This document shows positions 1-26,557 of a stretch of 64,000 nt of DNA, piece by piece. The stretch's first letter is position 1, and every line of letters begins with the position of its first letter. Source of the DNA: Escherichia coli (GTDB taxonomy: Bacteria; Pseudomonadota; Gammaproteobacteria; Enterobacterales; Enterobacteriaceae); the NCBI RefSeq assembly GCF_030013595.1, contig NZ_CP122768.1, one strand, 5' to 3'. The position numbers were made by a program, and so were the translations under genes. The notes beneath the pieces are model-generated. The model did not search any database, was not told the DNA's origin, and saw only the letters and a program-made list of their open reading frames with translations.

Positions 1-42
1 GGTGCGCCGTGGTTTGTCTGGTTGCTTGTGAGAATGCGATAA

Positions 43-810
43 ATGACTTTACGAACTGAAAATCTGACGGTCAGTTACGGGACAGACAAGGTACTTAACG
101 ACGTTTCACTCTCACTGCCAACGGGGAAGATCACCGCCCTGATCGGTCCTAACGGTTGCGGGAAATCGACGCTGTTAAACTGTTTTTCGCGGCTTTTAAT
201 GCCGCAGTCTGGCACCGTATTTCTCGGCGATAATCCCATAAATATGCTCTCATCGCGCCAGTTGGCCCGCAGGCTTTCGCTGCTGCCTCAGCACCATTTA
301 ACGCCAGAGGGGATCACAGTCCAGGAGCTGGTTTCGTATGGTCGTAATCCCTGGCTGTCACTCTGGGGGCATCTCTCCGCTGAAGACAATGCACGAGTTA
401 ATGTCGCCATGAACCAGACCCGGATTAATCATCTTGCCGTTCGTCGGTTAACCGAGCTTTCCGGCGGTCAGCGCCAGCGCGCATTTCTGGCGATGGTCCT
501 GGCCCAGAATACGCCCGTTGTATTACTTGATGAACCAACCACCTATCTTGATATCAATCACCAGGTGGACCTGATGCGGTTGATGGGCGAACTCCGGACT
601 CAGGGGAAAACGGTGGTCGCTGTGCTGCACGACCTTAATCAGGCTAGCCGGTACTGCGATCAACTGGTGGTAATGGCAAACGGGCATGTTATGGCGCAAG
701 GCACACCAGAAGAGGTGATGACCCCAGGATTGCTGAGAACAGTATTCAGCGTGGAAGCGGAAATACACCCCGAGCCGGTATCTGGCAGGCCGATGTGCCT
801 AATGAGGTAG
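43..810 (+). CDS. fecE: Ferric citrate ABC transporter ATP-binding protein FecE (last gene of fecABCDE)
   Basis: 255-aa ORF with Walker A GPNGCGKST, ABC signature LSGGQRQR and Walker B VVLLDEP; full-length agreement with E. coli FecE as recalled. Confidence 0.92.
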   Translation: MTLRTENLTVSYGTDKVLNDVSLSLPTGKITALIGPNGCGKSTLLNCFSRLLMPQSGTVFLGDNPINMLSSRQLARRLSLLPQHHLTPEGITVQELVSYGRNPWLSLWGHLSAEDNARVNVAMNQTRINHLAVRRLTELSGGQRQRAFLAMVLAQNTPVVLLDEPTTYLDINHQVDLMRLMGELRTQGKTVVAVLHDLNQASRYCDQLVVMANGHVMAQGTPEEVMTPGLLRTVFSVEAEIHPEPVSGRPMCLMR

Positions 811-1347
811 ATTGCACAGGCCGTAAGAACCAAACCACGACTGAATGAAACTGGACTGGCGCCAGCAAGCCAGTTCAGACTGGGGCTGAACTTTTCCGGA
901 CTCTGAAAGATTACCAATACTCATCGTCCATCCGCTTGCTTTAGGCTGACAGGTTCATAATCAACGCAAACCAGAGCTGTACAGGCTTGGGCGCGGCTTT
1001 CAAACCAGTCGTGATCACGGCAATCAATTTTGAACTCTGCTTAACGGACATTTCTGTATAACCCTTACGGCAACGAAAAACGCGAAGTTAAAATTTTAGA
1101 AACCCAAAAACGTGACATGACTAAGTTTAGATTTCAGGGGGGAGATCAAAAAATTTCGCTCTGTGCCAGAGCGGACATTCATGGAGCTGGTTCATTACCA
1201 ATGAGGTTGGGCTTTTGAGGATAAATCAATGATCAGACGCCAACGTAAATCAAAAGCAACCCTGGAACGGAATTGCTAATCCAGTTTCTGACCATCGATT
1301 TTTCTAAAAAGTGTGCGTTTGCTACTACTTAGGTAGGTGCAGCTTTC

Positions 1348-1839
1348 TTAATCACCGGCAGCCACGCTGGTCTGTTTACTGTCGTACTTACTGGTGTCCT
1401 GCTGGCTGCTTATCAGCAGGTCGTGGCCCACATCGGCGATAATCCTGTTGCCGTTGACCTGAGCACCGTTCAGTACCGTATCCCGACCACTGTTGATGGT
1501 GACGGTTTTACCGCTGTCTGTTGTGGTTTCAGTCCACTCAGTACCGTTACCTTTCTCGCTGCCTTTTGCCGCATTAACGCTGGCAAAGACGCTGATACCG
1601 GCACCGTTACCACCGGCACCGATACTGACACCCACGCCACCGCCAGCCCCGGTTATCAATGGTGCTGAGGTAGTCACTCCATGAATACGTGTAATCCACC
1701 AGGGTATAGCCATACGGCAGACTGACACCGGCGGCAAAATTCCTCGCATCATGTGACACCGAAAAGTCACTGCTCCGTCCCCCGCTGACAAACCAGTTGT
1801 CAGCCAGCCCCAGAGGATTATTAAAGGAAAGGACACCAT
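1348..1839 (-). pseudogene. Hemagglutinin/CdiA-like repeat fragment (TpsA remnant) in a different frame from the TpsB fragment
   Basis: Gly-rich stretch followed by ...[39 protein letters not shown]..., resembling filamentous hemagglutinin/CdiA repeats; frame overlaps the end of the TpsB fragment, suggesting a deletion/frameshift fusion. Confidence 0.4.
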
Positions 1840-2662
1840 TTAACTGCCCCGTACCGGTATTCTTCTGCCCGCTGTTGTCGATGCCCACGCTCCCTGTGAC
1901 TGGCCATTCCGGCAATGCCGTCAGTGTCACCACCGACCATCCCTCACGGTCACCGGGCGATATTTCAATCTGTACCGGTTCCGTACGCAGACGATTAATC
2001 TGCTCCATCCCCTGCTCAATATCCCGCAGGTTCAGAACCTTCCCCTCCATTCCCGGGAAAACCATCTTCAGGGTGCGGGCAGGAAGGTCAGCGCCTTCCG
2101 CCCGGATTTGCTGCAGCCTGCCTTCCATGACCGTTATGTGCAGTACGCCCCCTGAAAGGTCCTGCTCTGTCAGAAAGGCCCGGCTGGTGATATATCCCCG
2201 GCGTATATAGCCGTCCGTCACGGCATCCGTGACCGCAGTCAGGCCGGTGATATTCAGACACTGATTCACCCACGGTGCCACCAGTCTGTCGGTTTCTGCA
2301 GACGTCAGTCGGGTGGCCCCACTGACAACAATGCGTGACACCGTAAAGCAGGGGCCTTCAGTACCGGCAGACGTTTCCGGAGACGGCGTGATAGTCAGCG
2401 GCGCACTGCGCTCCAGCGCATCACGCTGATGCTGGTTTTCATCCAGCAACTGCTGCTGTTGCTGCTGAATTGCACTGCGGTCACCCGGAGACAGCATGGC
2501 TGCCGGAGACGAAAATGCGGGGATAAAAAAACCAGAAAAAACGGAGAGGGAGAGATAGCATATCCACGGAGAGCCACGCCGGAACATATCACAACAGGGG
2601 ACAGACAACGCACGGGATAAAAGGGACGTTTTCGTCAGAATGTTGTTCTGCCGGCGCTGCAT
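1607..2662 (-). pseudogene. Two-partner secretion transporter (ShlB/FhaC/CdiB family, TpsB) N-terminal fragment, about 351 codons of an expected 550-590
   Basis: Signal-peptide-like N-terminus, glutamine-rich linker, POTRA-like segment and start of the beta-barrel, then premature stop; family assignment by motif recall. Confidence 0.55.
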
Positions 2663-3177
2663 GTTCTCCCCGTATTCTGGCCTGTGTGATGCCAGTGTAA
2701 ATTCATGTCAAAAAGTGTCAGCGAGAAAATTTACACCTGAAAAAGTCTGTCATGAAACAGTTTTATGACAAGACATCAAAAAAATGTCAAAAACGTGATC
2801 TTTCTTCAGCTTTTCAGAATATTGAGTACCAGGAAGTCAATATCAATTCTGGGACACATATGCATTTACCATTAAAACCGGGCACAACAAGCTGTTCAGT
2901 CTCAATCCATACCCCGTGTTTTATCAATATCAGAATAAGAATATCTGCGGATAAATAAAAAAGGAATGTCGAGGGAGCTTACCGCAGAGGGCTCTCCACC
3001 TCACAAACCATTTACAAAAATGATACCGGCATATCTTTGGTCCCTGTCACAACCAGACATTGACAATCCAATATAACCCCAAATATATTTCGGGTAAGAA
3101 GTCTGGGATTTATACAGATATACTGTCTGTTATTACTATTTAATTATATAATTGTATTGCATACATAAGAGGCACTA

Positions 3178-3567
3178 ATGAAACGTTATATAAAATGGTT
3201 TGCCATCACAATTTTTATCAGTATGTTGAGTGCCTGTGCCCGTACGGCCCCAGTGCAACAGATAAGCACCACTGTCAGTGTGGGTCATACTCAGGAGCAG
3301 GTTAAAAATGCCATTTTGAAAGCAGGTGCGCAGCGCAAGTGGATTATGACGCAAGTGTCCCCTGGAGTTATTAAAGCTCGCTATCAAACACGAAATCACG
3401 TTGCAGAGGTTCGTATTACATATACAGCTACCTACTATAACATCAAATATGACAGTAGCCTGAATCTGCAGGCTTCTGATGGAAAAATTCATAAAAACTA
3501 TAACCGCTGGGTGCGTAACCTAGATAAAGATATACAGGTTAACTTATCTACAGGAGCAACGTTATAG
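3178..3567 (+). CDS. Small predicted lipoprotein, first gene of the lipid-biosynthesis cluster region
   Basis: 129-aa ORF with signal peptide and lipobox (ISMLSAC); lies in visibly AT-rich DNA immediately upstream of the cluster methyltransferase. Confidence 0.6.
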   Translation: MKRYIKWFAITIFISMLSACARTAPVQQISTTVSVGHTQEQVKNAILKAGAQRKWIMTQVSPGVIKARYQTRNHVAEVRITYTATYYNIKYDSSLNLQASDGKIHKNYNRWVRNLDKDIQVNLSTGATL

Positions 3568-3631
3568 TGATGCTGATATCGGGCTGGAATGGCCCGATAG
3601 TATTTAACTTTCTCTATAAGAATGGTTATAT

Positions 3632-4690
3632 ATGTACGAACAGGACACGCTCAGCGCACTGGATGCCATCACCGAAGCACAGCGGATTGCCTTTGCTCCT
3701 ATGCTTTTCCAGGCAGCTTTGTGCCTGCGCAATGCAGGAATATTAGATTATTTGGATCAACAGGGTAAACAGGGAGCTCCCCTTAATGCGATTACTGAGC
3801 ACACAGTCCTGAATGAATATGCCGTGGGTGTGTTACTGGATATGGGCTTAAGCGGGCGAATTATTACCTGTAAAGAGGGAATTTATTACCTGGCGAAAAT
3901 CGGTCATTACCTCCTGCATGACACTATGACTCGCGTGAATATGGATTTCACCCAGGATGTCTGTTACCAGGGGCTCTTCTTCCTTGCCGATTCACTCAAT
4001 GAAGGAAAACCTTCCGGGTTAAAAGTATTTGGCGACTGGCCGACGATATATCCGGCACTTTCGCAATTACCAGACGCCGCACGTGATAGCTGGTTTGCGT
4101 TTGATCATTACTATTCAGATGGCGCATTTAACGCCGCACTGCCTTATGTATTCGCCAACAACCCCACAACCTTGTACGATGTGGGTGGCAATACGGGTAA
4201 GTGGGCTTTGCGCTGCTGCAAATTCAATGAAAACATCGCCGTTACGTTATTAGATCTGCCACAACAAATCGTACTGGCGAAAGAAAATATCGCGAATGCA
4301 GGTTTTTCTGATCGCATAGATTTCCATGCGGTGGATATGCTAAGCGATGCCCCATTACCAGGCGAGGCTGATATCTGGTGGATGAGCCAATTTTTAGACT
4401 GTTTTTCACCCGAACAAATAATTAGCATACTCAGCAAAATTGCCAGCGTAATGAAGCCTGGCGCAAAACTTTGCATCATGGAGTTGTTCTGGGATGCACA
4501 GCGGTTTGAAGCGACATCGTTTAGCCTGAATGCATCCTCACTTTATTTTACCTGCATGGCAAACGGTAACAGCCGTTTCTATAGTGCAGAGAAATTTTAC
4601 GACTATCTGAATAAAGCAGGATTCCAGGTAGCAGAGTGTCACGATAATTTAGGCGTTGGGCATACACTTTTGATATGCCAAAAGAAATAA
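3632..4690 (+). CDS. SAM-dependent methyltransferase (APE-cluster methyltransferase-like)
   Basis: 352-aa ORF with SAM-binding motif LYDVGGNTGKWA; position matches the methyltransferase of aryl-polyene clusters. Confidence 0.75.
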   Translation: MYEQDTLSALDAITEAQRIAFAPMLFQAALCLRNAGILDYLDQQGKQGAPLNAITEHTVLNEYAVGVLLDMGLSGRIITCKEGIYYLAKIGHYLLHDTMTRVNMDFTQDVCYQGLFFLADSLNEGKPSGLKVFGDWPTIYPALSQLPDAARDSWFAFDHYYSDGAFNAALPYVFANNPTTLYDVGGNTGKWALRCCKFNENIAVTLLDLPQQIVLAKENIANAGFSDRIDFHAVDMLSDAPLPGEADIWWMSQFLDCFSPEQIISILSKIASVMKPGAKLCIMELFWDAQRFEATSFSLNASSLYFTCMANGNSRFYSAEKFYDYLNKAGFQVAECHDNLGVGHTLLICQKK

Positions 4691-4730
4691 TCGTCACTTA
4701 ATAATTTTGGTTTACCGCGGGCGCGCGTTG

Positions 4731-5453
4731 ATGAAATTTGCATTAAATATTACCAACTGGCAGGCACTGGCGCCTGGACTTAGCGATGTGCAGCAATGGC
4801 AAGCATGGTCGCGCCAGCCGTGGGCGATTGACCCTGCCGCGCCGTTGGCAAAATTAAGTGAACTGCCAATGATGACCGCTCGTCGTCTCAGTTCAGGCAG
4901 CAAACTGGCTGTTGAATGCGGTCTGACAATGCTACGCCGCCATCAGCCAGACGCTGTTTTGTATACCAGTCGTCATGGCGAACTGGAGCGCAATTACCGC
5001 ATTGTTCATGCACTGGCAACCGAACAGGCGCTTTCTCCGACGGACTTCGCGCTTTCCGTACACAACTCTTCCGTGGGTAACCTGACCATTGTGGCCAAAC
5101 AGCCGATCGTTTCGTCATCGCTTTCGGCTGGTCGCGACAGTTTCCAGCAAGGTTTGTGTGAAGTGCTTAGCCTGCTACAAGCGGGATACCAGCGCGTGTT
5201 GATGGTCGATTTTGATGGCTTTCTACCTGAGTTTTATCACCCGCAACTGCCCGCAGAAATGCCTACCTGGCCGTACGCCGTCGCGCTGGTGATTGAAGCT
5301 GGCGATGACTGGCAATGTGAAACGCAGCCAGCCATTGCGGTAAATGAAACAACACTGCCGCAAAGCATCTTGTTTTTACAGCACTATTTACAAAATGCAG
5401 ATGCTTTTTCACTGCCTGGCGAGCGCGTGCAATGGCGCTGGAGCCGCAGATGA
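4731..5453 (+). CDS. Beta-ketoacyl-synthase-like protein (short KS-like, possible chain-length-factor partner)
   Basis: ORF track starts at TTG 4707; ATG at 4731 (MKFALNITNW) is more plausible. About 240 aa, shorter than a catalytic KS. Confidence 0.6.
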   Translation: MKFALNITNWQALAPGLSDVQQWQAWSRQPWAIDPAAPLAKLSELPMMTARRLSSGSKLAVECGLTMLRRHQPDAVLYTSRHGELERNYRIVHALATEQALSPTDFALSVHNSSVGNLTIVAKQPIVSSSLSAGRDSFQQGLCEVLSLLQAGYQRVLMVDFDGFLPEFYHPQLPAEMPTWPYAVALVIEAGDDWQCETQPAIAVNETTLPQSILFLQHYLQNADAFSLPGERVQWRWSRR

Positions 5454-6271
5454 GTAAGCTGATGTCGCGCCTGGGATGGGCATGGCGACTGGTCATGACC
5501 GGGTTATGTTTTGTCCTGTTTGGTCTCGGCGGCCTGCTGCTTTCAGTCGTGTGGTTTAACATATTGTTAGTTTTGGTGTGGGATACTTCCCGCCGCCGTC
5601 GTTTGGCACGTCGCAGCATTGCCGCCAGTTTTCGCCTGTTTTTAACTGTCGCGAAAGGGCTTGGCGTGCTGGATTATCGTATTGATGGCGCTGAAATTTT
5701 ACGTCAGGAACGCGGTTGCCTCGTCGTAGCCAATCATCCCACGCTGATCGATTACGTGCTGCTGGCATCAGTCATGCCAGAAACTGACTGCCTGGTGAAA
5801 AGCGCGCTGTTAAAAAATCCTTTTCTTGGCGGCGTCGTGCGAGCGGCAGATTATTTAATCAACAGCGAAGCAGAAACCCTGTTACCCCGCTGCCAACAGC
5901 GACTGGCACAGGGTGACACTATCCTGATTTTCCCCGAAGGCACACGAACGAAGCCCGGTGAAAAAATGACGTTACAGCGCGGTGCAGCGAATATTGCCGT
6001 GCGCTGCACCAGCGATTTACGCATCGTGACGATCGGCTGTAGCGAGCATCTGCTGGATAAACAAAGTAAGTGGTATGACGTCCCGCCTGCCAGGCCGTTT
6101 TTTACGGTTGAAGTCCGTGGGCGGGTAGAAATCAATAAATTTTACGATGCAACTTCACAAGAGCCGACGCTGGCTGCAAGACAGTTAAACCGGCATCTTT
6201 TGCTTCAATTACAGCAAGGTTGTTTACCTCTATCAGGAATAAATAATGCAAGCGCTTTATCTGGAAATTAA
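5450..6271 (+). CDS. Lysophospholipid/1-acyl-glycerol-3-phosphate acyltransferase family protein
   Basis: N-terminal membrane helix, acyltransferase motifs NHPTLIDYV (HX4D) and FPEGTR; ATG at 5450 overlaps the upstream stop (ATGA); the ORF track's alternative start is 5432. Confidence 0.8.
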   Translation: MSKLMSRLGWAWRLVMTGLCFVLFGLGGLLLSVVWFNILLVLVWDTSRRRRLARRSIAASFRLFLTVAKGLGVLDYRIDGAEILRQERGCLVVANHPTLIDYVLLASVMPETDCLVKSALLKNPFLGGVVRAADYLINSEAETLLPRCQQRLAQGDTILIFPEGTRTKPGEKMTLQRGAANIAVRCTSDLRIVTIGCSEHLLDKQSKWYDVPPARPFFTVEVRGRVEINKFYDATSQEPTLAARQLNRHLLLQLQQGCLPLSGINNASALSGN

Positions 6272-6503
6272 AAACCTCATCATCAGCACCCTCAATCTGG
6301 ACGACTTGACTCCTGATGATATTGATATCAATGCGCCACTGTTTGGCGACGGTTTAGGGCTGGACTCTATCGATGCACTGGAACTGGGACTGGCAGTAAA
6401 AAATGAGTACGGCATCGTGCTCTCTGCGGAAAGCGAAGAAATGCGTCAGCACTTTTTCTCCGTCGCCACTCTGGCCTCTTTCATTGCTGCGCAACGTGCC
6501 TGA
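6246..6503 (+). CDS. Acyl carrier protein (first of tandem pair)
   Basis: 85-aa acidic ORF with phosphopantetheine attachment motif GLDSID. Confidence 0.85.
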   Translation: MQALYLEIKNLIISTLNLDDLTPDDIDINAPLFGDGLGLDSIDALELGLAVKNEYGIVLSAESEEMRQHFFSVATLASFIAAQRA

Positions 6504-6514
6504 GGAAAACCATC

Positions 6515-6766
6515 ATGACAGACCAACAAACCATTTATCAGGAAGTCTCAGCCCTGCTGGTTAAGCTGTTTGAAATCGATCCGCAGGACATCAAACCTGA
6601 AGCGCGACTGTACGAAGATCTGGAACTGGACAGCATCGACGCCGTTGACATGATTGTGCACCTGCAAAAGAAAACCGGTAAGAAAATCAAGCCGGAAGAG
6701 TTTAAAGCAGTGCGTACAGTCCAGGATGTTGTCGAGGCTGTAGAACGCCTGCTACAAGAAGGCTAA
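6515..6766 (+). CDS. Acyl carrier protein (second of tandem pair)
   Basis: 83-aa acidic ORF with LELDSIDAV motif. Confidence 0.85.
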   Translation: MTDQQTIYQEVSALLVKLFEIDPQDIKPEARLYEDLELDSIDAVDMIVHLQKKTGKKIKPEEFKAVRTVQDVVEAVERLLQEG

Positions 6767-6767
6767 T

Positions 6768-7352
6768 TTGATGTCGGGCATTCGCTCGCTACCGATGATT
6801 AAGTTGCTGACCGGATTATTGCTGCTCGTCTGGCCTTTTTTAATCTGGCTAGGTTTGGTGCATAACAGCCTGCACTGGCTGTTGCCGCTGATGGCGCTGT
6901 TGCTTTTATTGCGCCTGCGCCAGCCCCGTCGCCAGACGGGGCCGCTCCAGGTCGTCACAAAAATCGTTGCTGTTGTGGGCATTGTATTGTGTGTCTCCAG
7001 TTTTCTGTTGAAAACGTACCAGTTACTGCTGTTTTACCCGGTAGTGGTTAACGCAGTCATGCTGGCGGTTTTTGGCGGTTCGCTGCGGTCGACAATGCCG
7101 ATAGTTGAGCGGCTGGCACGTTTGCAGGAGCCAGACCTCCCGGAAAAGGCCGTGCGATATACCCGCCGCGTAACGCAGGTCTGGTGCCTGTTTTTTATTT
7201 TCAATGGCAGTATTGCGTTATTTACCACCTTGTATGGCAACATGCCCTTGTGGACAGCCTGGAACGGTATCATTGCTTACCTTCTGATAGGTTTCCTGAC
7301 TGCAGGGGAATGGCTGATACGTCGTAAGATGATCAAACGGAAAACACCATGA
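6768..7352 (+). CDS. Small integral membrane protein of the cluster
   Basis: 194-aa ORF with several hydrophobic helices; no catalytic motif recognised. Confidence 0.6.
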   Translation: MMSGIRSLPMIKLLTGLLLLVWPFLIWLGLVHNSLHWLLPLMALLLLLRLRQPRRQTGPLQVVTKIVAVVGIVLCVSSFLLKTYQLLLFYPVVVNAVMLAVFGGSLRSTMPIVERLARLQEPDLPEKAVRYTRRVTQVWCLFFIFNGSIALFTTLYGNMPLWTAWNGIIAYLLIGFLTAGEWLIRRKMIKRKTP

Positions 7353-8707
7353 ATCAGACTCTCTCACTTTCACAGTGGTTGACAGCCTCTCGCCCTGTAA
7401 CAACTCCTGTTGCCTGGCTTGGGGAATATACCTGGACACTGGGGCATCTGCGGCATGATGTAGCGCTTTTGATCGACCATTTACGCGACCAGCCAGGCAA
7501 TCGCTGGGCACTTTGTTTTGAAAACAGCTATCTTTTTATTGTAGCGTTGTTGGCCACGCTACACTCAGGTAAAATCCCGGTAATCCCGGGCCATAATCGC
7601 GCCGCTTTGTTAAATGTACAACGCTCTTTGTTTGATTGCGTCCTGAGTGATAAAAGGCTGGGCTGGAACGGTCCACAGTTTGTTGTAAGCACATCTCACC
7701 AGATGACGACCAGCACGATAGCCTTTGATGATATTGCTTCTGACGCGTTTATTGAACTTTTCACATCGGGTTCAACCGGACAACCAAAACAAATTGCAAA
7801 ACCTGTTATCAGCCTTGATCAAGAAGCAAACATGCTGGCAACTCACTTTGCAGACCGACTACTGGGCTGTCGTTTTGTAGCATCCGTGATGCCTCAGCAC
7901 CTGTATGGGCTAACTTTCCGTATTTTTTTACCCATGGCACTTGGCCTGCCATTGCATGCCGCAATGCTCTGGTATTCTGAGCAACTTGCCGCATTAAGCC
8001 ATACCTACCGCTATGCCTTTGTCAGCAGCCCGGCGTTCCTTAAGCGACTCGACCTTCATCTGACGCCTCCCCCAGTGGAAATGATTCTCTCTGCCGGCGG
8101 TATGCTACCATGGCAGGATGTAGAGAAAACTTCCACCTGGCTGAATATATGGCCCGATGAAATCTATGGTAGTACCGAAACAGGTATTCTCGCATGGCGT
8201 TACCGTCAACAGGATAATATCCCCTGGTTTACTTTTTCTGATGTTCATCTTTCACAGGAAAGTGAGGGGGTTCGTGTCTTTTCGCCACTAATCCCTGCTG
8301 AAGGATTGGTGCTTGACGATATGTTGCAATTCAATGAAAACGGTCAGTTCCACCTGATCGGACGACGTGGTCGAGTGGTAAAAATAGAGGAGAAGCGGAT
8401 ATCACTGGTTGAAATCGAACAACGACTTCTGGCACTTGACGGTATTATGGATGTCGCTGCAATACCATTAATACGCAATGGCCGCCAGGCTATCGGTGTC
8501 GTGGTTGTACCAAATAAAGAGGCCCGTCAAATATGGCAATGCTCCGGAGGGAAAACTCTGGAGTTGTCCTGGCGCAAAGCACTATTACCATGGCTTGAAC
8601 CTGTTGCAGTACCTCGTTACTGGCGCATTATTGATGAAATACCAGTAAACAGTATGAACAAGCGTGTCTATGCGCAATTACAGGAGTTATTTCATGATAC
8701 GCCATGA
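7349..8707 (+). CDS. AMP-dependent synthetase/ligase (adenylating enzyme, probable starter-acid:ACP ligase)
   Basis: 452-aa ORF with AMP-binding motif TSGSTGQPKQ; ATGA overlap with upstream gene. Confidence 0.8.
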   Translation: MNQTLSLSQWLTASRPVTTPVAWLGEYTWTLGHLRHDVALLIDHLRDQPGNRWALCFENSYLFIVALLATLHSGKIPVIPGHNRAALLNVQRSLFDCVLSDKRLGWNGPQFVVSTSHQMTTSTIAFDDIASDAFIELFTSGSTGQPKQIAKPVISLDQEANMLATHFADRLLGCRFVASVMPQHLYGLTFRIFLPMALGLPLHAAMLWYSEQLAALSHTYRYAFVSSPAFLKRLDLHLTPPPVEMILSAGGMLPWQDVEKTSTWLNIWPDEIYGSTETGILAWRYRQQDNIPWFTFSDVHLSQESEGVRVFSPLIPAEGLVLDDMLQFNENGQFHLIGRRGRVVKIEEKRISLVEIEQRLLALDGIMDVAAIPLIRNGRQAIGVVVVPNKEARQIWQCSGGKTLELSWRKALLPWLEPVAVPRYWRIIDEIPVNSMNKRVYAQLQELFHDTP

Positions 8708-10714: not shown

Positions 10715-10717
10715 AGG

Positions 10718-14610: not shown

Positions 14611-14611
14611 T

Positions 14612-16973: not shown

Positions 16974-18199
16974 CACGTCGCGTAGTGATTACAGGAATGG
17001 GCGGCGTGACTGCCTTTGGTGAAAACTGGCAGGACGTTTCTGCACGCTTACTGGCGTATGAAAATGCGGTGCGCAAAATGCCGGAGTGGCAGGTCTACGA
17101 TGGGCTGCACACCCTGCTTGGCGCGCCTGTTGATGATTTCACGCTACCGGAGCACTACACCCGCAAGCGTATCCGTGCGATGGGCCGCGTGTCGCAAATG
17201 TCGACCCGTGCCAGCGAGCTGGCGTTAGAGCAGGCAGGGTTGATTGGCGATCCGATATTAACCAGCGGCGAAACGGGCATTGCGTACGGTTCATCGACCG
17301 GCAGTACCGGTCCGGTGAGCGAATTTGCCACCATGCTGACTGAAAAGCACACGAACAACATCACTGGCACCACCTATGTGCAGATGATGCCGCACACCAC
17401 CGCTGTTAATACTGGCCTCTTTTTCGGCCTGCGCGGGCGGGTGATCCCAACCTCCAGCGCCTGTACCTCCGGCAGCCAGGCGATCGGTTATGCGTGGGAA
17501 GCCATTCGCCACGGTTATCAAACGGTGATGGTTGCCGGTGGTGCCGAAGAGTTATGCCCTTCAGAAGCAGCAGTGTTTGATACCCTTTTTGCCACCAGCC
17601 AGCACAATGATGCGCCGAAAACCACACCTTCACCGTTCGATGAAAACCGCGACGGACTGGTGATTGGTGAAGGCGCAGGTACGCTCATTCTCGAAGAACT
17701 GGAGCATGCCAAAGCGCGCGGCGCGACCATTTACGGTGAAATCGTCGGCTTTGCGACGAACTGCGACGCGGCACATATTACCCAGCCGCAGCGCGAAACC
17801 ATGCAGTATTGTATGGAGCAATCGCTGAAAATCGCAGGGTTAAGCGCACAAGATATCGGCTATATTTCAGCGCATGGTACGGCGACCGATCGCGGTGATA
17901 TGGCAGAAAGTCTGGCGACAGCAACCATTTACGGTGATAATGTGCCGCTCTCCTCGCTGAAAAGTTATTTTGGTCATACGCTTGGTGCCTGTGGCGCGCT
18001 CGAAGCCTGGATGAGTCTGCAAATGATGCGCGAAGGTTGGTTTGCGCCTACGCTAAACCTGAATAAACCAGACCCGAATTGTGGCGCGCTGGATTACATC
18101 ATGCATGAAGCCCGCAGGGTTGATTGTGAGTTTTTGCAGAGTAACAACTTTGCCTTTGGCGGCATTAATACATCCATCATTATTAAGCGCTGGCCCTGA
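16970..18199 (+). CDS. Beta-ketoacyl-ACP synthase (FabB/FabF-like KS)
   Basis: 409-aa ORF with KS motifs (SSACTSG, HGTAT, GHTLGACG); ATGA overlap with reductase gene. Confidence 0.9.
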   Translation: MTRRVVITGMGGVTAFGENWQDVSARLLAYENAVRKMPEWQVYDGLHTLLGAPVDDFTLPEHYTRKRIRAMGRVSQMSTRASELALEQAGLIGDPILTSGETGIAYGSSTGSTGPVSEFATMLTEKHTNNITGTTYVQMMPHTTAVNTGLFFGLRGRVIPTSSACTSGSQAIGYAWEAIRHGYQTVMVAGGAEELCPSEAAVFDTLFATSQHNDAPKTTPSPFDENRDGLVIGEGAGTLILEELEHAKARGATIYGEIVGFATNCDAAHITQPQRETMQYCMEQSLKIAGLSAQDIGYISAHGTATDRGDMAESLATATIYGDNVPLSSLKSYFGHTLGACGALEAWMSLQMMREGWFAPTLNLNKPDPNCGALDYIMHEARRVDCEFLQSNNFAFGGINTSIIIKRWP

Positions 18200-18206
18200 G
18201 TTATAC

Positions 18207-18229
18207 AACCACATGGACATCCCATGTGG
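18207..18229 (+). terminator. Hairpin immediately after the last cluster gene (weak terminator candidate)
   Basis: accacatgg / ccatgtggt inverted repeat with 5-nt loop; no strong T-run, so low confidence. Confidence 0.3.
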
Positions 18230-19038
18230 TGATTCTTCAAAAAATCTGAATCAATGAATATGAACCTCAAATTCTCTTACGCATACTGAAGAGCATTCCG
18301 TATAACGATTCAGCAGACAAAACTTTATCAGTCCACACGAATCAACGGATGCACAGATGACACGCCCGGTTATCACCGGGCAATGGTTGCCATAACGGGT
18401 AACATAAGGGACTGAACAGTTGTCTTTAGCGCAACGAACTGATCTAACGTACCTGAACGGACAACCTGAAAACAGTCTTTCACCCTGCATTGTCCGCCAG
18501 TGCTTATTACCAACCACGTCTGTTGCAGTAAAGTAATCAGTTGCGAACATTATTTATCAATCGTGACGCTGGCTCGCGCATGGCAGAAAAGGTCCTGACT
18601 GAGCAACAACAGGCATCGTACTGTTGCTGCTCCATGTTGTTTATATGAACGCATCCCGTTTGCAAGGCTTCCGTGTTTTTGACGTTGACGGTAGATTGCT
18701 GCTCTATATCCTTATTGCAGCCGGTGCTGCGGGCCTCAATGAGATTCGCTGACTCTCGCCTTATTCACGCAACGAGCTTTAAGCTCAGAAAAACATCCAA
18801 GTTTGGTGAGTCACAGTCTTACCTGTCGTTGTCATCAATATAGGAATGGATAATCTGGAGAGCGATACTGCAGGCTGATATTGCGGTTTTGCGACAAGTT
18901 TTTAGCATCCGCTTCTACGCCAAATACCTGAAGTAGGAATGGATGCGTTAGCAGCATACATCCGGAACTGCGCGGGGAATAGCCGGAAACGGCTATCCCT
19001 ACCACAATAGCTAACTTTGTAATAGCGCTCTTTTAGGC

Positions 19039-20070
19039 TCATGTACTCTGACGTAATTCTATCTGGTAGTTGAATTGCACGATACGCGACTCTTCTGATT
19101 CATCATGATTATTATTCAATAGTCCAATCAGTAACTTACCTGTCTCTATCCCCATTTTTTTGTAGTCAATACGGATGGATGTCAAAGTTGGGTGTGTTTG
19201 ATCGCAATTGTCTGAACCGTCAAGACAAGCTACAGCGATATTTCCAGGGATTTTTAACAAACGCCGCTGGCACTCAAACATTATACCCAGCGCAATCTCT
19301 TCGTGGCTGCAAATCACAGCATCCAGCTCTGGTTGTCGCAGTAATATCTCGTTTAATGCGTAACGCCCCAATTGCAGACTTGCGGCATCCGGCATGGTGA
19401 TAACAAGATCAGTGTTCTGGTAATGGCTCAGCATTGCTTTATGCCAGCCGTTCAGTTGCTGACGTTGCAGGCGGTTGTCCATATGCGCACCGATAAATCC
19501 GATATTCTTATAACCCTGCTCCAGCAGATGTTCGGTCAGTTTATGTGATGCTTCAAAAAATGCTGTTTCGATGGTAATTTGAGCCGGACTGAAAGGGGAA
19601 CCGATAACGTTAATGGTAGGTATATTTGTTTTCTCGAGTATCTGGTGAGTTTTATCAGCCAACTGAGAACCAAAAATAACTAACGCCGCCGGGTTGCCTT
19701 GAAGAAGCGTCATCAGAATTTCAGCTTCTTTGAGCTGATTATACTCATGACACCCAAGCAGTAGCTGGAATTCATTTTTATTAAGCACCTGCTGTAATGA
19801 CTGCATAAAGCGGGAGCTGGCTTTATCTGTCAGGGAAGGAACCAGTACGGCGACTGTATGACTGTGACCAGATGCAAGGGCGCCAGCAGTTCTGTTGGGA
19901 ATATAACCCAACTCTTCTACGGCCTGTTCTATCTTTTCCCTCAGCTTGTCAGAAACCTGTTCCGGTGTTCTCAGCGCGCGGGAAACGGTCATAGTTCCGA
20001 CACCTGCAAAGTTAGCGACCTCCTGCAGCGTCACCCGTCCGGTACCACGGCGCTTACGTGTTTTTTCCAT
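19039..20070 (-). CDS. LacI/GalR-family transcriptional regulator
   Basis: 343-aa ORF with N-terminal HTH (VTLQEVANFAGVGTMTVSRAL) and periplasmic-binding-protein-like sugar-binding domain. Confidence 0.9.
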   Translation of the reverse strand: MEKTRKRRGTGRVTLQEVANFAGVGTMTVSRALRTPEQVSDKLREKIEQAVEELGYIPNRTAGALASGHSHTVAVLVPSLTDKASSRFMQSLQQVLNKNEFQLLLGCHEYNQLKEAEILMTLLQGNPAALVIFGSQLADKTHQILEKTNIPTINVIGSPFSPAQITIETAFFEASHKLTEHLLEQGYKNIGFIGAHMDNRLQRQQLNGWHKAMLSHYQNTDLVITMPDAASLQLGRYALNEILLRQPELDAVICSHEEIALGIMFECQRRLLKIPGNIAVACLDGSDNCDQTHPTLTSIRIDYKKMGIETGKLLIGLLNNNHDESEESRIVQFNYQIELRQST

Positions 20071-20215
20071 TTCGACTCCATGGATAATTACAACCAGCTG
20101 TTTTCATTACTTTTATTTCACCATTACTCTTTCCAGTTTTTGCCCACGGTAGCAAATATCCTGTTGCATTGTATATGCAGGAACCGAATATAGCCAAAGC
20201 ATGGCGGCAGAGAAA

Positions 20216-20263
20216 TGATAGCGCTATCACAAAGATTGGTAGCGTTATCAGATAGCGCTATCA
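20216..20263. promoter_or_regulatory. Two copies of a 14-bp palindrome (TGATAGCGCTATCA and AGATAGCGCTATCA), candidate LacI-family operators
   Basis: Perfect and near-perfect palindromes at 20216-20229 and 20250-20263, in the divergent intergenic region between the regulator and the PTS operon. Confidence 0.55.
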
Positions 20264-20340
20264 AATGCGACAATCATCACATTAATTAATGCGTAAAATA
20301 TCTACTCTCCTGTTAATTATCATCGGGAGTTATCAGTAGC

Positions 20341-20784
20341 ATGTTAAAAAATCTATTAAATACAGAGGTCGTTCAGGTCGTGGAACAGGTCAAAGACTGG
20401 CGGGAAGCCGTGGCGATTTCATGCCGACCGTTGATTGAAAACGGCTCTATCGAACCGCGTTATGTTGATGCGATCTATCACTCGCACGACACTATCGGTC
20501 CGTACTATGTGGTTGGCCCTGGTATTGCGATGCCTCATGCGCGCCCGGAAGAGGGGGCTAACAAGCTGTCATTAGCACTGACCCTGATCCCTTCAGGTGT
20601 GAATTTTGATGCCGATGAAAACGATCCAGTGAAATTACTGATTGTGCTGGCTGCAACCGACAGTACCAGCCACATTGAAGCGATTTCTCAACTCGCCAAG
20701 TTATTCGATAACGAAAAAGACATACAGGCCATTTTGACGGCCAAAACGACGCAGGACATTTTGTCTGTTATTGCGCGCTATTAA
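20341..20784 (+). CDS. PTS EIIA component (mannitol/fructose/ascorbate-type EIIA)
   Basis: 147-aa ORF with active-site His context (GIAMPHAR). Confidence 0.85.
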   Translation: MLKNLLNTEVVQVVEQVKDWREAVAISCRPLIENGSIEPRYVDAIYHSHDTIGPYYVVGPGIAMPHARPEEGANKLSLALTLIPSGVNFDADENDPVKLLIVLAATDSTSHIEAISQLAKLFDNEKDIQAILTAKTTQDILSVIARY

Positions 20785-20799
20785 TCCAGAGGAACATTT

Positions 20800-21087
20800 A
20801 TGAAAATTACAGTGGTTTGCGGTAACGGCTTAGGCACCAGCCTGATGATGGAAATGAGCATTAAAAGCATTTTGAAGGATTTGTCCGTCAGCGCTGATGT
20901 TGATCACGTCGACCTGGGCTCCGCGAAAGGGACGCCGAGTGATATCTATGTCGGCACCAAAGACATTGCCGAGCAGTTAGCCGCGCAGTCTGTCGCAGGC
21001 AAAATCGTCGCACTGGAAAATATGATTGATAAGAAAGCCATGAGAGAACGTTTGTCCGTGGTATTAACCGAATTAGGCGCACTGTAA
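20800..21087 (+). CDS. PTS EIIB component (ascorbate/galactitol-type)
   Basis: 95-aa ORF with N-terminal phospho-Cys motif VVCGNGLGTS. Confidence 0.85.
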   Translation: MKITVVCGNGLGTSLMMEMSIKSILKDLSVSADVDHVDLGSAKGTPSDIYVGTKDIAEQLAAQSVAGKIVALENMIDKKAMRERLSVVLTELGAL

Positions 21088-21099
21088 GCTGGGGGCGAT

Positions 21100-22356
21100 A
21101 TGGATTTCTTTCGTTTTTTGATGAGCGATGTACTTTCCGAACCCGCAGTGCTGGTCGGTTTAATCGCCCTGATTGGCCTGATTGCACAGAAAAAACCGGT
21201 AACCGAATGCATTAAAGGTACCGTCAAGACCATTATGGGGTTTGTGATTTTAGGCGCAGGGGCGGGTTTAGTTGTGTCGTCACTGGGTGACTTCGCAAAC
21301 ATTTTCCAGCATGCCTTTGGTATTCAGGGTGTAGTGCCGAACAATGAAGCCATTGTTTCCGTAGCGCAGAAAAGCTTCGGGAAAGAAATGGCGATGATTA
21401 TGTTCTTTGCGATGGTTATCAACATTATGATTGCCCGTTTCACACCGTGGAAATTTATCTTCCTGACCGGTCATCACACGTTGTTTATGTCGATGATGGT
21501 AGCGGTAATTCTGGCAACAGCAGGCATGACCGGCATTACGCTTATAGCCGTTGGCTCTTTGGTTGTTGGCGTGGCAATGGTCTTTTTCCCGGCTATTGCG
21601 CATCCGTACATGAAGAAAGTGACCGGTTCTGATGACGTTGCCATCGGCCACTTCTCAACATTATCTTATGTATTGGCCGGTTTCATCGGCAGCAAGTTTG
21701 GTAATAAAGAGCACTCGACTGAAGACATGAATGTGCCGAAAAGTCTGCTGTTCTTGCGCGACACGCCGGTTGCTATCTCTTTTACCATGAGCATAATTTT
21801 CCTGGTGACGTGCCTGTTTGCGGGTGCAGATGCGGTGAAAGAGCTTAGCGGTGGTAAAAACTGGTTCATGTTCTCTATCATGCAATCCATTACCTTCGCA
21901 GCTGGCGTGTACATCATTCTGCAGGGTGTGCGCATGGTGATTGCGGAGATTGTCCCGGCATTCAAAGGTATTTCAGACAAGCTGGTTCCGAATGCCAGAC
22001 CTGCTCTCGATTGCCCGGTCGTCTTCCCTTACGCACCTAACGCTGTACTGGTTGGTTTCCTGAGTAGCTTTGCTGCAGGTTTAATCGGTATGTTCACGTT
22101 GTATCTGCTGAACATGATCGTGATTATTCCTGGTGTGGTGCCGCACTTCTTCGTAGGTGCAGCTGCAGGGGTATTCGGTAATGCAACGGGTGGACGTCGT
22201 GGTGCGATTTTGGGTGCCTTCGCTCAGGGCTTGCTTATTACCTTCCTGCCAGTATTCTTATTGCCGGTGCTGGGTGATATTGGTTTTGCTAACACCACCT
22301 TCAGTGATGCTGACTTTGGCGCACTGGGTATTTTGTTAGGGATTATCGTTCGCTAA
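21100..22356 (+). CDS. PTS EIIC permease (UlaA/SgaT family)
   Basis: 418-aa polytopic membrane ORF following IIA and IIB. Confidence 0.85.
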   Translation: MDFFRFLMSDVLSEPAVLVGLIALIGLIAQKKPVTECIKGTVKTIMGFVILGAGAGLVVSSLGDFANIFQHAFGIQGVVPNNEAIVSVAQKSFGKEMAMIMFFAMVINIMIARFTPWKFIFLTGHHTLFMSMMVAVILATAGMTGITLIAVGSLVVGVAMVFFPAIAHPYMKKVTGSDDVAIGHFSTLSYVLAGFIGSKFGNKEHSTEDMNVPKSLLFLRDTPVAISFTMSIIFLVTCLFAGADAVKELSGGKNWFMFSIMQSITFAAGVYIILQGVRMVIAEIVPAFKGISDKLVPNARPALDCPVVFPYAPNAVLVGFLSSFAAGLIGMFTLYLLNMIVIIPGVVPHFFVGAAAGVFGNATGGRRGAILGAFAQGLLITFLPVFLLPVLGDIGFANTTFSDADFGALGILLGIIVR

Positions 22357-22369
22357 TATTTTGATGACA

Positions 22370-22571: not shown

Positions 22572-22856
22572 TTACCTCGCGTAAAAAACGGGGTAAGGCC
22601 GCTCATCCAGCGTCATCTCCACAGGTAATAATTCAACGCCAATGCCAGAAGAGTTCGTTACCGGAAGACGCCGTGATATACGCCCTTTGATCAGCGAGAG
22701 CCTGAGCCATTTGAACAGAAGATTATCATTGATATCATGCTCCCGGGCAATACGGGCAACAGAACCCCTTGGTTGTAAAGCCAGTTTAACCATTTGAAGT
22801 TTAAACTCATTTGAAAATGACCTGCGGGGTTCAACTGATAATGTTTTTTGTTCCAT
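22572..22856 (-). mobile_element. IS3-family transposase OrfA-like remnant (degraded)
   Basis: 94-aa ORF with the helix-turn-helix region typical of IS3-family OrfA (FSNEFKLQMVKLA...SVARIAREHDINDNLLFKWLR); no intact second transposase ORF or terminal repeats seen. Confidence 0.5.
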
Positions 22857-23277
22857 AACAGGTGTCCACTAGTTGAAAAGGTGGGTACCTATGTTACCAA
22901 TACTGGCTTAATGGCTACATACAGCAGTCGGTTTACGCATACACTTTTATAGTGCACTCCGGCCTCATGAATATAACGGTGGATTACCGCCGAACGAATC
23001 GGAAAATAGATACTGGAAAAAAACTGAAATTGTGACCAGTTTTTGTTGACCACTACAAATAAATAAAAGAGTTGCAGTGCTTGCTCGGTAAGAAAACAAT
23101 GGAGGTTAAGCTCCTCAAAGAAGCTGTGGAGTACACCACTCTACAGTAGTTGCGCAAATTTGGAGTGGACGATAATGTGATCGTCTATAAGGGCAACGCT
23201 ATCATAGTCTTGTCCTGGCGGGTAAAAAAACGCGCTTACCTTAACGATAAGCGCGCCGCTGTTCAGGCCTTGAGTGG

Positions 23278-24291
23278 TTATTCAATTCCTGTGGTGACTG
23301 TAAAAGTGCGCGTTTGCTGCGGTGCAACCTGAATCAGCGTGCCATTACGTTGCGCGGCAAGATACCCCTCAGGCCGACAGGTTGCAGGTAATGCAAAGGC
23401 GGCTACCTGTTGCTCTCCGTTATAAAGGATCCAGCGTGTCACATAATTTAGTTCAGCACTGTAGAAACGAGTAACAAACGTAGTGCCATCGGGAGAGATC
23501 ATGCGAAACTCTGGCTGATCTGTATAAGCGTCCAGTTTGTCTGCAAAGAAGACAATTTCTGGATCATAAAATTCCGGTTGACTCAGCGTCGACAGAGAGG
23601 CTTCTCCCTGCATAATCCGTTGATTAAACGCCAGCCACTGAGCGGTGGGATTAACATGCGAAGGCACTGATTCACGCAATCTTAATATTTCGTCCGGGAT
23701 ATTCTGGCTGAATGTAGCATTTGGTATATATGCATAATTCATGTGGCACATATATTGTAGTGGCATATCTACAGAAGCCAGATTGGTTACGGCCATCTTA
23801 ATATCGAACAGTGTAGAGGATTTGTGAAGGACCACTGTTGGCTGAGCCAGATAATGATGACCGAAACCCATTACATACTCGTAACGCCCGTTAAGGCGTA
23901 ACATATCTCCGTCTAATTCCAGCCATGCTTCATCCATCGCGGCACAGGCCATTTCACCGTGTAGCAGATGAGTATCTTCCACAGATGGGCAGCCATTAGC
24001 CAGCAAACCTGAATGAAAAGCAAAACAGCCATAGGTCTCTATCACCTCTGTCGCCGGTTTAGGCTGGCGAAACATATTGCACATGGTGAGGCCGTGTCCA
24101 TCAAATTGCGCATCCCAAATCATCTGCCCCATCCAGGGAAGAATAATCAAATGTCCACGACTGTTTGCAATTTTAAGCCCCTCGACACCGCTGTCATATC
24201 GAAAAGACGTGACAGTAAAATCACTATTTTCCAGCAAGATACGAGGTTTCTCGCCAAAAAGCGCCCGCCACAAATTAATACGCGTACTCAT
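23278..24291 (-). CDS. deoX: DeoX-like protein of the deoxyribose operon (function unknown, possibly mutarotase-like)
   Basis: 337-aa ORF downstream of the kinase and permease in the same orientation; assignment by operon synteny with Salmonella/pathogenic E. coli deoK-deoP-deoX as recalled. Confidence 0.55.
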   Translation of the reverse strand: MSTRINLWRALFGEKPRILLENSDFTVTSFRYDSGVEGLKIANSRGHLIILPWMGQMIWDAQFDGHGLTMCNMFRQPKPATEVIETYGCFAFHSGLLANGCPSVEDTHLLHGEMACAAMDEAWLELDGDMLRLNGRYEYVMGFGHHYLAQPTVVLHKSSTLFDIKMAVTNLASVDMPLQYMCHMNYAYIPNATFSQNIPDEILRLRESVPSHVNPTAQWLAFNQRIMQGEASLSTLSQPEFYDPEIVFFADKLDAYTDQPEFRMISPDGTTFVTRFYSAELNYVTRWILYNGEQQVAAFALPATCRPEGYLAAQRNGTLIQVAPQQTRTFTVTTGIE

Positions 24292-24302
24292 AACGATTCT
24301 CC

Positions 24303-25619
24303 TCAGGACGCTGTGACTTCAGCCAGTGCGGTACGTACTTTGCTTTCACGCCAGAAGTAGACTCCGACATAGACAAAGCAGAGCATAGAAACCAGGAATG
24401 AAAGCTGTAGTGAGTGGAACATATCTGCAATATATCCCTGAATTGCCGGAACCACCGCGGCACCGACAATAGCCATAACAATGACTGCTCCTGCCATTTC
24501 TGTATGTTCGTTATCAACTGTATCCAGTGTTCCTGCATAGATCGTCGCCCAGCAAGGGCCAAACAAAACACTTACCAGGACGGCGACATAGACCGCGCTG
24601 AAACTTGGAGCCAGTGCAACATATGCCAGGAACAGCGCCCCTATAACGGAATAGAGAATCAATACTTTTTCCGGATTAAAACGCGTCATAAGGATATTGG
24701 CTATAAACTTGCCAATAAAGAAGCAGGCAAAGCTATAGACCATGAAGTTTGAAGCATCACGTTCGTTGATATCGCCCAACTCCAGCGCCAGACGGATGGT
24801 AAATGACCATACTGCGACCTGCATACCCACATAAAGGAACTGCGCCACAATACCGCGACGAAAGCGCGGATTTCTAGCCAGATAGCGCAGCGTATCCATT
24901 GCTGACGGGCGTTTATGGTGACTTGTCTGTGCCACTTTACAGGTTGGGAAGCGGGTTAAAAGGAACAACACCATGACCACAACCAGAATCATAATCATAT
25001 ACTTATACGGTTCAAGGGTGTTCTCTAACATCAGCACCTTAAAGTTGTGAATTTGCTCGGCGTTCATTCCTGACATCTGCTTTTCAAGGCTTTCCCCCTC
25101 GGAGAAAACCAGATATTTGCCCAATAAAATACCAGACGCAGCACCAATCGGATAAAAGGTCTGGCTGATATTGAGCCGCAATGTGGCATAGGCTTTTGGA
25201 CCGATCATTGAACTGTATGTGTTCGCTGCAGTTTCAAGGAAACTCAGGCCAATCGCAATCGCAAAAATAGCTGCAAGGAACATAGTGTAGGTTGCCATAT
25301 GCGAGGCAGGGAAAAAAAGTGTACAACCACCAATATACAGCGTCAGGCCAATTAAAATTGCCACCTTATAACTGGTCTTTTTAATCACAAGGGATGCTGG
25401 TATTGCAATTAAAAAATAACCTCCATAAAATGCGCTCTGCACCAATGCTGAAGCAAAGTTACTTAGCGAAAATACACTTTTGAATTGAGTGATTAATATG
25501 TCATTTAATGCAGCTGCGCATCCCCATAGCGGGAATAAACACGATAACAAAATAAACTGGAACAAGGGAGTCTTATTCAGATACCCATCAGGCATCTGAA
25601 TGATGTTTTTATCGTTCAT
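24303..25619 (-). CDS. deoP: MFS sugar permease, FucP family (DeoP-like deoxyribose permease)
   Basis: 438-aa 12-helix MFS ORF; FucP-like N-terminus. Confidence 0.7.
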   Translation of the reverse strand: MNDKNIIQMPDGYLNKTPLFQFILLSCLFPLWGCAAALNDILITQFKSVFSLSNFASALVQSAFYGGYFLIAIPASLVIKKTSYKVAILIGLTLYIGGCTLFFPASHMATYTMFLAAIFAIAIGLSFLETAANTYSSMIGPKAYATLRLNISQTFYPIGAASGILLGKYLVFSEGESLEKQMSGMNAEQIHNFKVLMLENTLEPYKYMIMILVVVMVLFLLTRFPTCKVAQTSHHKRPSAMDTLRYLARNPRFRRGIVAQFLYVGMQVAVWSFTIRLALELGDINERDASNFMVYSFACFFIGKFIANILMTRFNPEKVLILYSVIGALFLAYVALAPSFSAVYVAVLVSVLFGPCWATIYAGTLDTVDNEHTEMAGAVIVMAIVGAAVVPAIQGYIADMFHSLQLSFLVSMLCFVYVGVYFWRESKVRTALAEVTAS

Positions 25620-25646
25620 AGTGCTACCTTTAACTGTGCAGGATGA

Positions 25647-26557
25647 TTATTCGTTTAAGGTTAAAAATTCATTAAATTGTTCAATACTCGGATAAGATGA
25701 TTGCGTACCTTTCCCTGTGACGCTGAAAGCGGCAAAGAGAGCGGCTTTTTTCAAAGCGGCTTCAACATCACCGCTTTGAACATAATAATGGGAAAAGCAA
25801 CCAATAAATGCGTCACCAGCGCCACTAGTATCAACAGCATTTACTTTGAATGCAGGAACATGGACTTCCTGATCGCGGGTCATCCATAATGCGCCTTTTT
25901 CGCTCATGGTAACAATAATATTGTTCAGCCCTTTATCAACTAACGAACGTGCGGCCAAACGAATATGATCATAAGTATCAACCGACATACCGGTTAATAT
26001 TTCCAGTTCTGTTTCATTCGGGATAAAGAAATCACATTTGCAGGCATAAGACATATCTAACTCACGCAATGCCGGAGCCGGATTTAATAACACTTCAATA
26101 CCATTTTTCTTACCAAACTCAATCGCGTGGTAAACTGTTTCCAGTTGAACTTCCAGTTGTAAAACGATCAATTTGCATTTTTTCAGATCTTCTGCAGCTC
26201 GATCGATATCTTCCGGGGAAAGAAATTTATTCGCTCCCTTAATTATTAATATACTATTGCTCGAGTTGGCATTAACAAAGATCGGTGCAACACCACTGCT
26301 GGTACAGGGGACTTTCTCAACATAAGTGGTATTAATTCCCCATGATTCGAGATTACGAATAGTATTATCCGCAAAAATATCATCACCTACTTTAGTCAGC
26401 ATCAGGACTTTTGAATTCAATTTAGCCGCCGCCACCGCTTGATTAGCACCTTTCCCACCACATCCGATTTTGAAGGCAGGTGCTTCCAGAGTTTCTCCTT
26501 CTTTAGGCATCTGATTAGTGTAAGTAATGAGATCCACCATATTGGAACCAATAACTG
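25647..26557 (-). pseudogene. deoK: Ribokinase-family sugar kinase (DeoK-like deoxyribokinase), 5' end removed by IS1
   Basis: PfkB/ribokinase motifs (GGKGANQAVAAA, DTSGAGDAF); reading frame runs upstream (VIGSNMVDL...) straight into the IS1 end at 26558 with no start codon or promoter. Confidence 0.7.

Follow-up and report, generated by a model that had tools for sequence, protein, structure and literature searches.

Islands inserted at tRNA-Phe genes can carry the vpe and deoK operons side by side, according to the available text of one report (PMC6455142), and aryl-polyene (APE) gene clusters have been reported on pathogenicity islands (PAIs) in Enterobacteriaceae (PMC8253772). Silencing of the cad genes is known from a different setting. 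In the accounts available for enteroinvasive Escherichia coli (EIEC), the intact cadBA genes of strains HN280, 4608 and 53638 are silent without CadC, plasmid-borne cadC restores cadaverine synthesis, and strain 6.81 carries cadC::IS1 (PMC4156367, PMC5723341); in reference Shigella genomes cadA has undergone deletion, a frameshift or disruption by an insertion sequence (IS) (PMC3739510). Here we describe a 64,000-nucleotide stretch of E. coli contig NZ_CP122768.1 (assembly GCF_030013595.1; hereafter the window, numbered from its first nucleotide) in which an island of the tRNA-Phe type meets the cad genes through a copy of IS1. An initial annotation, made from the sequence alone, had described the left 26.5 kb as an accessory island abutting cadC, consistent with a pheU-type insertion whose chromosomal edge was deleted. 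We find support for a pheU-type island with a deleted edge; cadC, however, is not merely abutted but destroyed, the IS1 event having removed its 5′ 837 nt.

An IS1 element joins a tRNA-Phe island to a truncated cadC gene

When positions 1–25000 of the window were compared by megablast to 5,426 complete E. coli genomes, 112 genomes matched over at least 80% of the query, and the best match, E. coli O141:H4 strain P13-6, was 100% over the full query length (1–25000). By local alignment the whole of 1–26557 corresponds to positions 4433160–4459716 of P13-6 (NZ_CP080223.1), with 26,555 of 26,557 positions identical, mismatches at 684 and 18117, and homology that stops exactly at 26557. In P13-6 this sequence is the interior of a 55,606-bp island between pheU and cadC (NZ_CP080223.1 4423797–4479402), which confirms that the left 26.5 kb is an accessory island. 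The P13-6 order is dsbD-dicD-pheU, a P4-type integrase gene, IS1, fecIRABCDE, a cdiBA remnant, the APE cluster, vpe, deoXPK, deoQ and a CP4-like right arm that carries Ag43 together with antirestriction, RadC-like and cbeA/cbtA genes; at its distal end the island has an imperfect repeat (22 of 23 nt) of the tRNA 3′ end, beyond which lie the yjdQ integrase remnant and cadC. Alignment revealed no counterpart of the left block in the K-12 cad neighbourhood; fecE, the secretion remnant, the polyene cluster, the phosphotransferase system (PTS) module and the deoxyribose genes are thus absent from it, as had been proposed.

The boundaries first drawn at 26557 and 27326 proved to be the exact outer edges of a complete 768-bp IS1 (26558–27325) that contains an InsB-size open reading frame (ORF) at 26573–27076. 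Both this copy and a second one in melB are 768 bp long, have both ends located (26558/27325 and 44093/44860), are annotated as IS1 in matching genomes, and differ from one another at 0 of 768 positions. The melB copy is flanked by a 9-bp target duplication (GACGTTGTG), indicating that IS1 has been active in the lineage. The flanks of the joint copy, CAATAACTG on the left and GACAATGCA on the right, contain no 9-bp target-site duplication of the kind that a simple insertion leaves, which marks this copy as a deletion or rearrangement joint. It connects nt 11 of deoK to nt 838 of cadC. Relative to P13-6, the 21,161 bp lying between deoK nt 10 and cadC nt 838 are missing. These comprise deoQ, the Ag43/CP4-like arm with the direct repeat at the island end, the yjdQ remnant, and the promoter and 5′ 837 nt of cadC.

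The island family occupies both pheU and pheV

The tRNA flank was checked in ten genomes that carry the full island. It is pheU in five of them (P13-6, FWSEC0007, WL1277, Z1323PEC0008 and EC20017429) and pheV, beside yqgA/speC, in the other five (H10407, S1-CAM-02-A, TW10828, 90-9280 and DEC9B). In all ten, a tRNA-Phe gene with the integrase gene adjoining it lies about 9.4 kb to the left of the equivalent of window base 1; in P13-6 this equivalent is 9.4 kb right of pheU. The pheU and pheV genes are identical over their 76 nt, and the two island integrases are identical at 417 of 421 positions. These comparisons show that pheU and pheV are alternative sites for one and the same island family; contact with cadC is therefore in itself no proof that an island lies at pheU. 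The initial annotation had named, as an observation that would speak against its reading, a genome with the left region next to different core genes and with an intact cadC beside its usual upstream neighbours; the five copies next to yqgA/pheV supply the first half of this. Even the two halves together would not be decisive against pheU, since the tRNA genes are identical and the integrases nearly so.

We note that the core sequence of the window is 98.6% identical to K-12 and that of P13-6 99.99% identical to K-12, yet the two islands are 99.99% identical to each other, from which it follows that the island moved recently between distant lineages.

The pheU site is empty in K-12, HCP5S3_I2 and EC291, and the yjdQ remnant is present there. 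In K-12 the order is cadC, the yjdQ integrase remnant and then pheU; pheU does lie beyond cadC, as had been stated, but it is not the next element. In P13-6 the two ends of the island (L001 2615–2751 and L020 20404–20540 of the extracted loci) share, besides the 22/23-nt tRNA 3′ end, about 114 bp of similar downstream sequence, which suggests that the yjdQ remnant found at empty pheU sites was left behind by an earlier island belonging to this family.

The reported absence of tRNA-Phe from the window was borne out: ARAGORN found no tRNA genes in the 64 kb, and the 23-nt tRNA-Phe 3′ end has no copy there with up to 3 mismatches. The absence of the distal repeat is what a deletion would be expected to produce.

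Origin of the joint

It is very probable, in our view, that the island sits at pheU in this genome and that an IS1-mediated deletion removed the sequence from deoK codon 4 to cadC nt 838. The identities, the junction positions and the missing target duplication are directly observed; we infer the pheU location, the order of events and every phenotype. The window reads fec, deoK, cadC, cadB, cadA in the same orientation as P13-6, which makes a deletion at the cadC-side edge the simplest reading.

According to this scenario, a tRNA-Phe island of about 56 kb would have integrated at pheU, oriented as in P13-6, as a mosaic of IS-bounded modules comprising the P4-type integrase, IS1-fec, the cdiBA remnant, APE, vpe, deoQKPX and the CP4-like arm with Ag43 and cbtA/cbeA. 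Either of two mechanisms could then have produced the deletion: a single IS1 transposing intramolecularly, or recombination across a pair of IS1 copies in direct orientation; because both routes leave one IS1 without matching flanks, the sequence does not separate them. The tRNA gene and the integrase gene would most probably be found about 9.4 kb to the left of position 1. The lost edge is the tRNA-distal one. Of the two fates that the initial annotation had allowed for the tRNA-proximal junction, a location just outside the window is the most probable, rather than loss. With the distal attachment (att) repeat gone, the island would no longer be able to excise. The deoxyribose operon is probably inactive, as deoQ, the promoter and the start of deoK are lost; any transcription of deoP and deoX would depend on weak read-through out of IS1, which points the same way. 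The event left the fec, APE and vpe modules unaffected, and these presumably still function.

Three points weigh against a deletion at pheU. The window begins in fecD, and pheU, pheV and the integrase gene all lie outside it. The identical island occupies pheV in half of the genomes examined. Finally, the 21.2-kb loss is an estimate taken from P13-6, and the right arm that this lineage carried before the deletion may have differed.

An unlikely alternative is that the island sits at pheV and that inverse IS1 copies in deoK and cadC recombined, inverting about 1.25 Mb including oriC, in which case nothing would have been deleted and the reciprocal joint would lie elsewhere in the genome. The five pheV copies, the sequence identity of pheU and pheV, and the 99% identity of the integrases are all compatible with this history. 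The K-12 gene orientations imply that its geometry would give fec...deoK′-IS1-cadC′-cadB-cadA as seen in the window, and an IS1 without target duplication, in a lineage in which IS1 is active, suits deletion and inversion alike. Such an inversion nevertheless requires two independent IS1 insertions and a large, origin-asymmetric rearrangement where a deletion requires one local event, and the nearest island copy, which differs by 2 single-nucleotide polymorphisms, sits at pheU. An exact-protein look-up of the CadC(1-282)::IS1 read-through protein that an inversion predicts returned none on record, but this test has little power, given that draft contigs end within IS1.

We think it very improbable that the island lies at pheU but never had a right arm of the P13-6 type, so that the loss was smaller or the ancestral structure another one, for example one ending near deoK. 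The island family is modular, with one relative lacking the APE cluster and another, EC190486, carrying vpe-deoK at leuX, and the H10407 copy has extra IS150, IS100, IS66 and IS1414 insertions. Every intact copy examined, however, runs from deoK into deoQ; the cuts at deoK nt 11 and cadC nt 838 mean that sequence was certainly lost on both sides; and neither the distal repeat nor yjdQ′ is found here, although even empty pheU sites have them.

Neither IS1 junction, on the deoK side or on the cadC side, was present in the 5,426 complete E. coli genomes. Among draft assemblies, at least five contigs of different samples contain the cadC-side junction, and GCA_036246605.1, which matches the window without a difference over 11.1 kb, contains the deoK-side junction; isolates with these junctions also include GCA_008326365.1, SRR30668404 and ERR5386557. 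That the joint is an assembly artefact, a contig mis-join through a collapsed IS1 repeat, is scarcely credible: IS1 is multi-copy, the window holds two indistinguishable copies and short-read assemblies break there, but these independent drafts end in IS1 at exactly the two junctions, which shows that each half-junction is genuine. What depends on the source assembly is solely that one IS1 links the two. Exact-protein look-ups with the truncated CadC, the truncated DeoK, AdiA, the ApeR-type ketosynthase (KS) and the MelB fragment led to draft contigs that break in IS1 or to relatives whose pheU site is empty. Of the contigs that carry the cadC-side junction, one extends for 34.8 kb, beyond the melB insertion site, and the cadC event is therefore older than melB::IS1 in at least some isolates.

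cadC is truncated and cadBA is intact

Mapped on the 1539-nt cadC gene of K-12, the junction leaves a remnant that encodes only the periplasmic sensor domain, without the DNA-binding domain, the transmembrane helix or the promoter, and the sole Pfam domain in its 226-aa ORF is CadC_C1. The closest core relative found, HCP5S3_I2 (99.9% identical over 17.9 kb), has an intact cadC beside an empty pheU, so that the truncation in the window is derived; the remnant differs from the HCP5S3_I2 gene at 0 of 702 positions. cadC is thus cut at nt 838 next to ORFs of cadB and cadA that are both intact. Because the DNA-binding domain, membrane helix and promoter are gone, the strain is predicted to be null for CadC, with cadBA silent and a lysine-decarboxylase-negative phenotype.

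In other E. coli genomes, IS1 has independently inserted into cadC at nt 850 (EH2252) and at about nt 1230 (EC556/571/581). The cadC gene of CD09 likewise contains IS1, at a position estimated from match coordinates as about nt 372, and approximately 30 of the 5,426 complete genomes carry IS1 inside cadC or next to it. The gene thus looks like a recurrent target of IS1 outside EIEC too.

We also considered a Shigella origin. It is not supported, as cadA is intact here and the exact-match proteins are named as E. coli. Those proteins were named ‘Escherichia coli’ only, and strains with related features came from pig faeces.

Gene modules of the island

The features of the window are collected in Table 1. 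At its left end lies the end of a block of fec iron-citrate uptake genes, which in P13-6 (L001 4268–13366) is 99.57% identical to the part of K-12 KpLE2 that begins with IS1F, includes fec and ends at the yjhV boundary; K-12 does therefore possess fec, at another locus. The cdi genes that follow are remnants. Genomes such as RM9088 have complete cdiA and ShlB-family genes, whose homology to the window begins at 1355.

The APE cluster comprises a core like that of a type II fatty acid synthase (KS, chain-length factor, acyl carrier proteins (ACPs), ketoreductase, two dehydratases and an adenylating enzyme) and, co-oriented with it, acyltransferases and a LolA/MMPL/DUF3261 export set. RefSeq names its products as ApeI and ApeP dehydratases, a chain-length factor, two ACPs, a COG4648 protein, MMPL, LolA-like and DUF3261 proteins, FabG2 and two KS, and Pfam matches were obtained to ApeI-like, ApeP-like, MMPL, LolA_3 and DUF3261. 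The match of the methyltransferase to the FlxJ family (472 bits) falls short of the 560-bit cut-off. The deoQKPX operon, made up of the regulator gene deoQ and genes for a kinase (deoK), a permease (deoP) and a mutarotase-like protein (deoX), is not complete here: deoQ is absent and deoK is cut at its 5′ end, the remaining ORF matching the ribokinase model TIGR02152 from profile position 8 only, whereas deoP and deoX are intact. An Rfam scan of the island part gave no match.

The cargo is a mosaic. The GC content is 56–60% in the APE core vs about 46% in the vpe/deoK flanks, and modules occur apart from one another: fec in KpLE2, vpe-deoK in a leuX island, and a variant without APE. In the last of these (GCA_004150085.1, RQHY01000143.1) the regulator side of vpe is joined directly to the cdiB 5′ region (equivalent to window 2394–2741), from which it appears that the APE block (about 2741–18281) behaves as a separate insertable module. 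The leuX island is that of EC190486 (NZ_CP143092.1 3985987–4016909), in which the vpe PTS and deoK modules occur together and deoK carries another, independent IS1 insertion.

Table 1 Features of the island, the IS1 joint and the adjoining core genes.
Feature	Position	Strand	Remarks
fecD, 3′ end	1–42	+	right end of 9.1-kb IS1-fecIRABCDE block
fecE	43–810	+	passes NCBIfam equivalog NF008409 (484 bits, cut-off 375)
Stretch downstream of fecE	to 1366	+	556 bp, to end of fec block
cdiBA two-partner-secretion (contact-dependent inhibition) remnant	1354–2662	-	
Internal cdiA fragment	1354–1653	-	identical P13-6 and H10407 sequence is RefSeq pseudogene
cdiB (ShlB/FhaC/HecB family)	1634–2662	-	C-terminally truncated; RefSeq pseudogene in P13-6 and H10407
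APE cluster	3178–18199	+	18 co-oriented genes, apeA-apeR equivalents; all 18 ORFs open
vpe carbohydrate PTS module	19039–22356	mixed	RefSeq annotation of P13-6
LacI-family regulator of vpe module	19039–20070	-	
PTS IIA, IIB and IIC genes	20341–22356	+	IIC passes NCBIfam NF006919 (628 bits, cut-off 380)
IS3-family transposase orfA fragment	22572–22856	-	seam between vpe and deoK modules; ‘transposase’ in P13-6; Pfam HTH_Tnp_1
deoX	23278–24291	-	intact ORF
deoP	24303–25619	-	intact ORF
deoK′	25647–26557	-	lacks first 10 nt (ATGGACATTG) and promoter
IS1 at the joint	26558–27325	-	complete, 768 bp; insA/insB; terminal inverted repeats located; co-directional with deoK′
cadC, 3′ remnant	27326–28027	+	nt 838–1539, codons 280–512
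cadB	28393–29727	+	intact; 444 aa, same length as annotated gene in other genomes
cadA	29807–31954	+	intact; product is LDCI_ECOLI, identical to K-12 CadA
IS1 in melB	44093–44860	-	simple insertion

The core block

From mid-cadC at 27326 as far as phnC, the window follows K-12 MG1655 colinearly in the opposite orientation, as had been recognized from the sequence. Window 27326–44092 corresponds to 41098–24333 of the K-12 locus (L002), and window 44860–62908 to 24342–6307, each reversed and 98.6–98.7% identical. Two interruptions break this colinearity: the 768-bp IS1 in melB and a small difference of the repetitive extragenic palindromic (REP)/naRNA4 type at about 62826–62908. Rfam places a REP-derived naRNA4 element where the colinearity slips (about 62826–62909), and the K-12 yjdN-yjdM spacer has about 420 bp extra. 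A full-length match to the small RNA STnc630 (181 bits; 57000–57165, minus strand) in the basS-proP region is an ordinary core feature.

The 328-aa MelB fragment left by the melB insertion is on record in 70 contig-collection blocks, including the complete genome EC291. In EC291, cadC is intact, pheU is empty and there is no island; the 3′ part of melB appears from the annotation to be missing there too.

Discussion

Each component is of a known kind, from the island and its modules to deletion through IS1 and the inactivation of cadC, and this particular junction alone is new. The joint is a case of ordinary genome decay through insertion sequences and not a new type of element. Its value lies mainly in annotation and typing: the strain is predicted to be lysine-decarboxylase negative, and probably deoxyribose and melibiose negative, despite intact cadBA, a combination that can lead to misidentification as Shigella-like. 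It adds a further instance to the known pattern in which cadC is repeatedly struck by IS elements, and it presents an island that, without its distal att site, would be locked in place.

In one lineage that is not Shigella, the same active IS1 has hit cadC, together with the deoxyribose operon and the Ag43 arm, and melB, and the junctions return in several independent drafts. It is conceivable, if doubtful, that this reflects an expanding clone undergoing reductive, pathoadaptive evolution of the Shigella/EIEC kind, with cadC under selection. Were this so, the lineage would be both lysine-decarboxylase negative and melibiose negative, and the loss of cadC would have been selected and would not be a neutral casualty.

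The closest known relatives of the island are the P13-6 pheU island and its near-identical copies, at pheU in O103:H2 and O121 Shiga toxin-producing E. coli (STEC) and at pheV in enterotoxigenic E. coli H10407, which have the same gene order and are 99.9–99.99% identical over 1–26557. The copy in the window differs from them in being cut at deoK nt 11 and in lacking deoQ, the Ag43/CP4-like arm, the distal repeat, yjdQ′ and the 5′ half of cadC. PAI I/II-AL862 and the LAC PAI of STEC negative for the locus of enterocyte effacement, insofar as the available text describes them (PMC6455142, PMC7545054), resemble it in their adjacent vpe and deoK operons, tRNA-Phe site with a P4-type integrase, imperfect 23-bp copy of the 3′ end of the tRNA gene, and cargo of the CdiA and Ag43 types; unlike the window, and again by description, they carry afa-8 or tia and other adhesin cargo, and that text mentions no fec or APE module. 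In layout, the APE cluster resembles the APE_Ec cluster of CFT073, which has 18 co-oriented genes in 15.5 kb with the same predicted functions (PMC8253772). The cad genes find their nearest parallel in the silencing described for EIEC (Casalino et al. 2003, as related in the available text of PMC4156367 and PMC5723341), where, as here, cadBA is intact and colinear with K-12 and cadC is destroyed. Silencing of cad in Shigella and EIEC belongs to invasive, pINV-bearing lineages, for which cadaverine is an antivirulence factor; in the window, the IS1 event has probably removed about 21 kb of an adjoining island as well.

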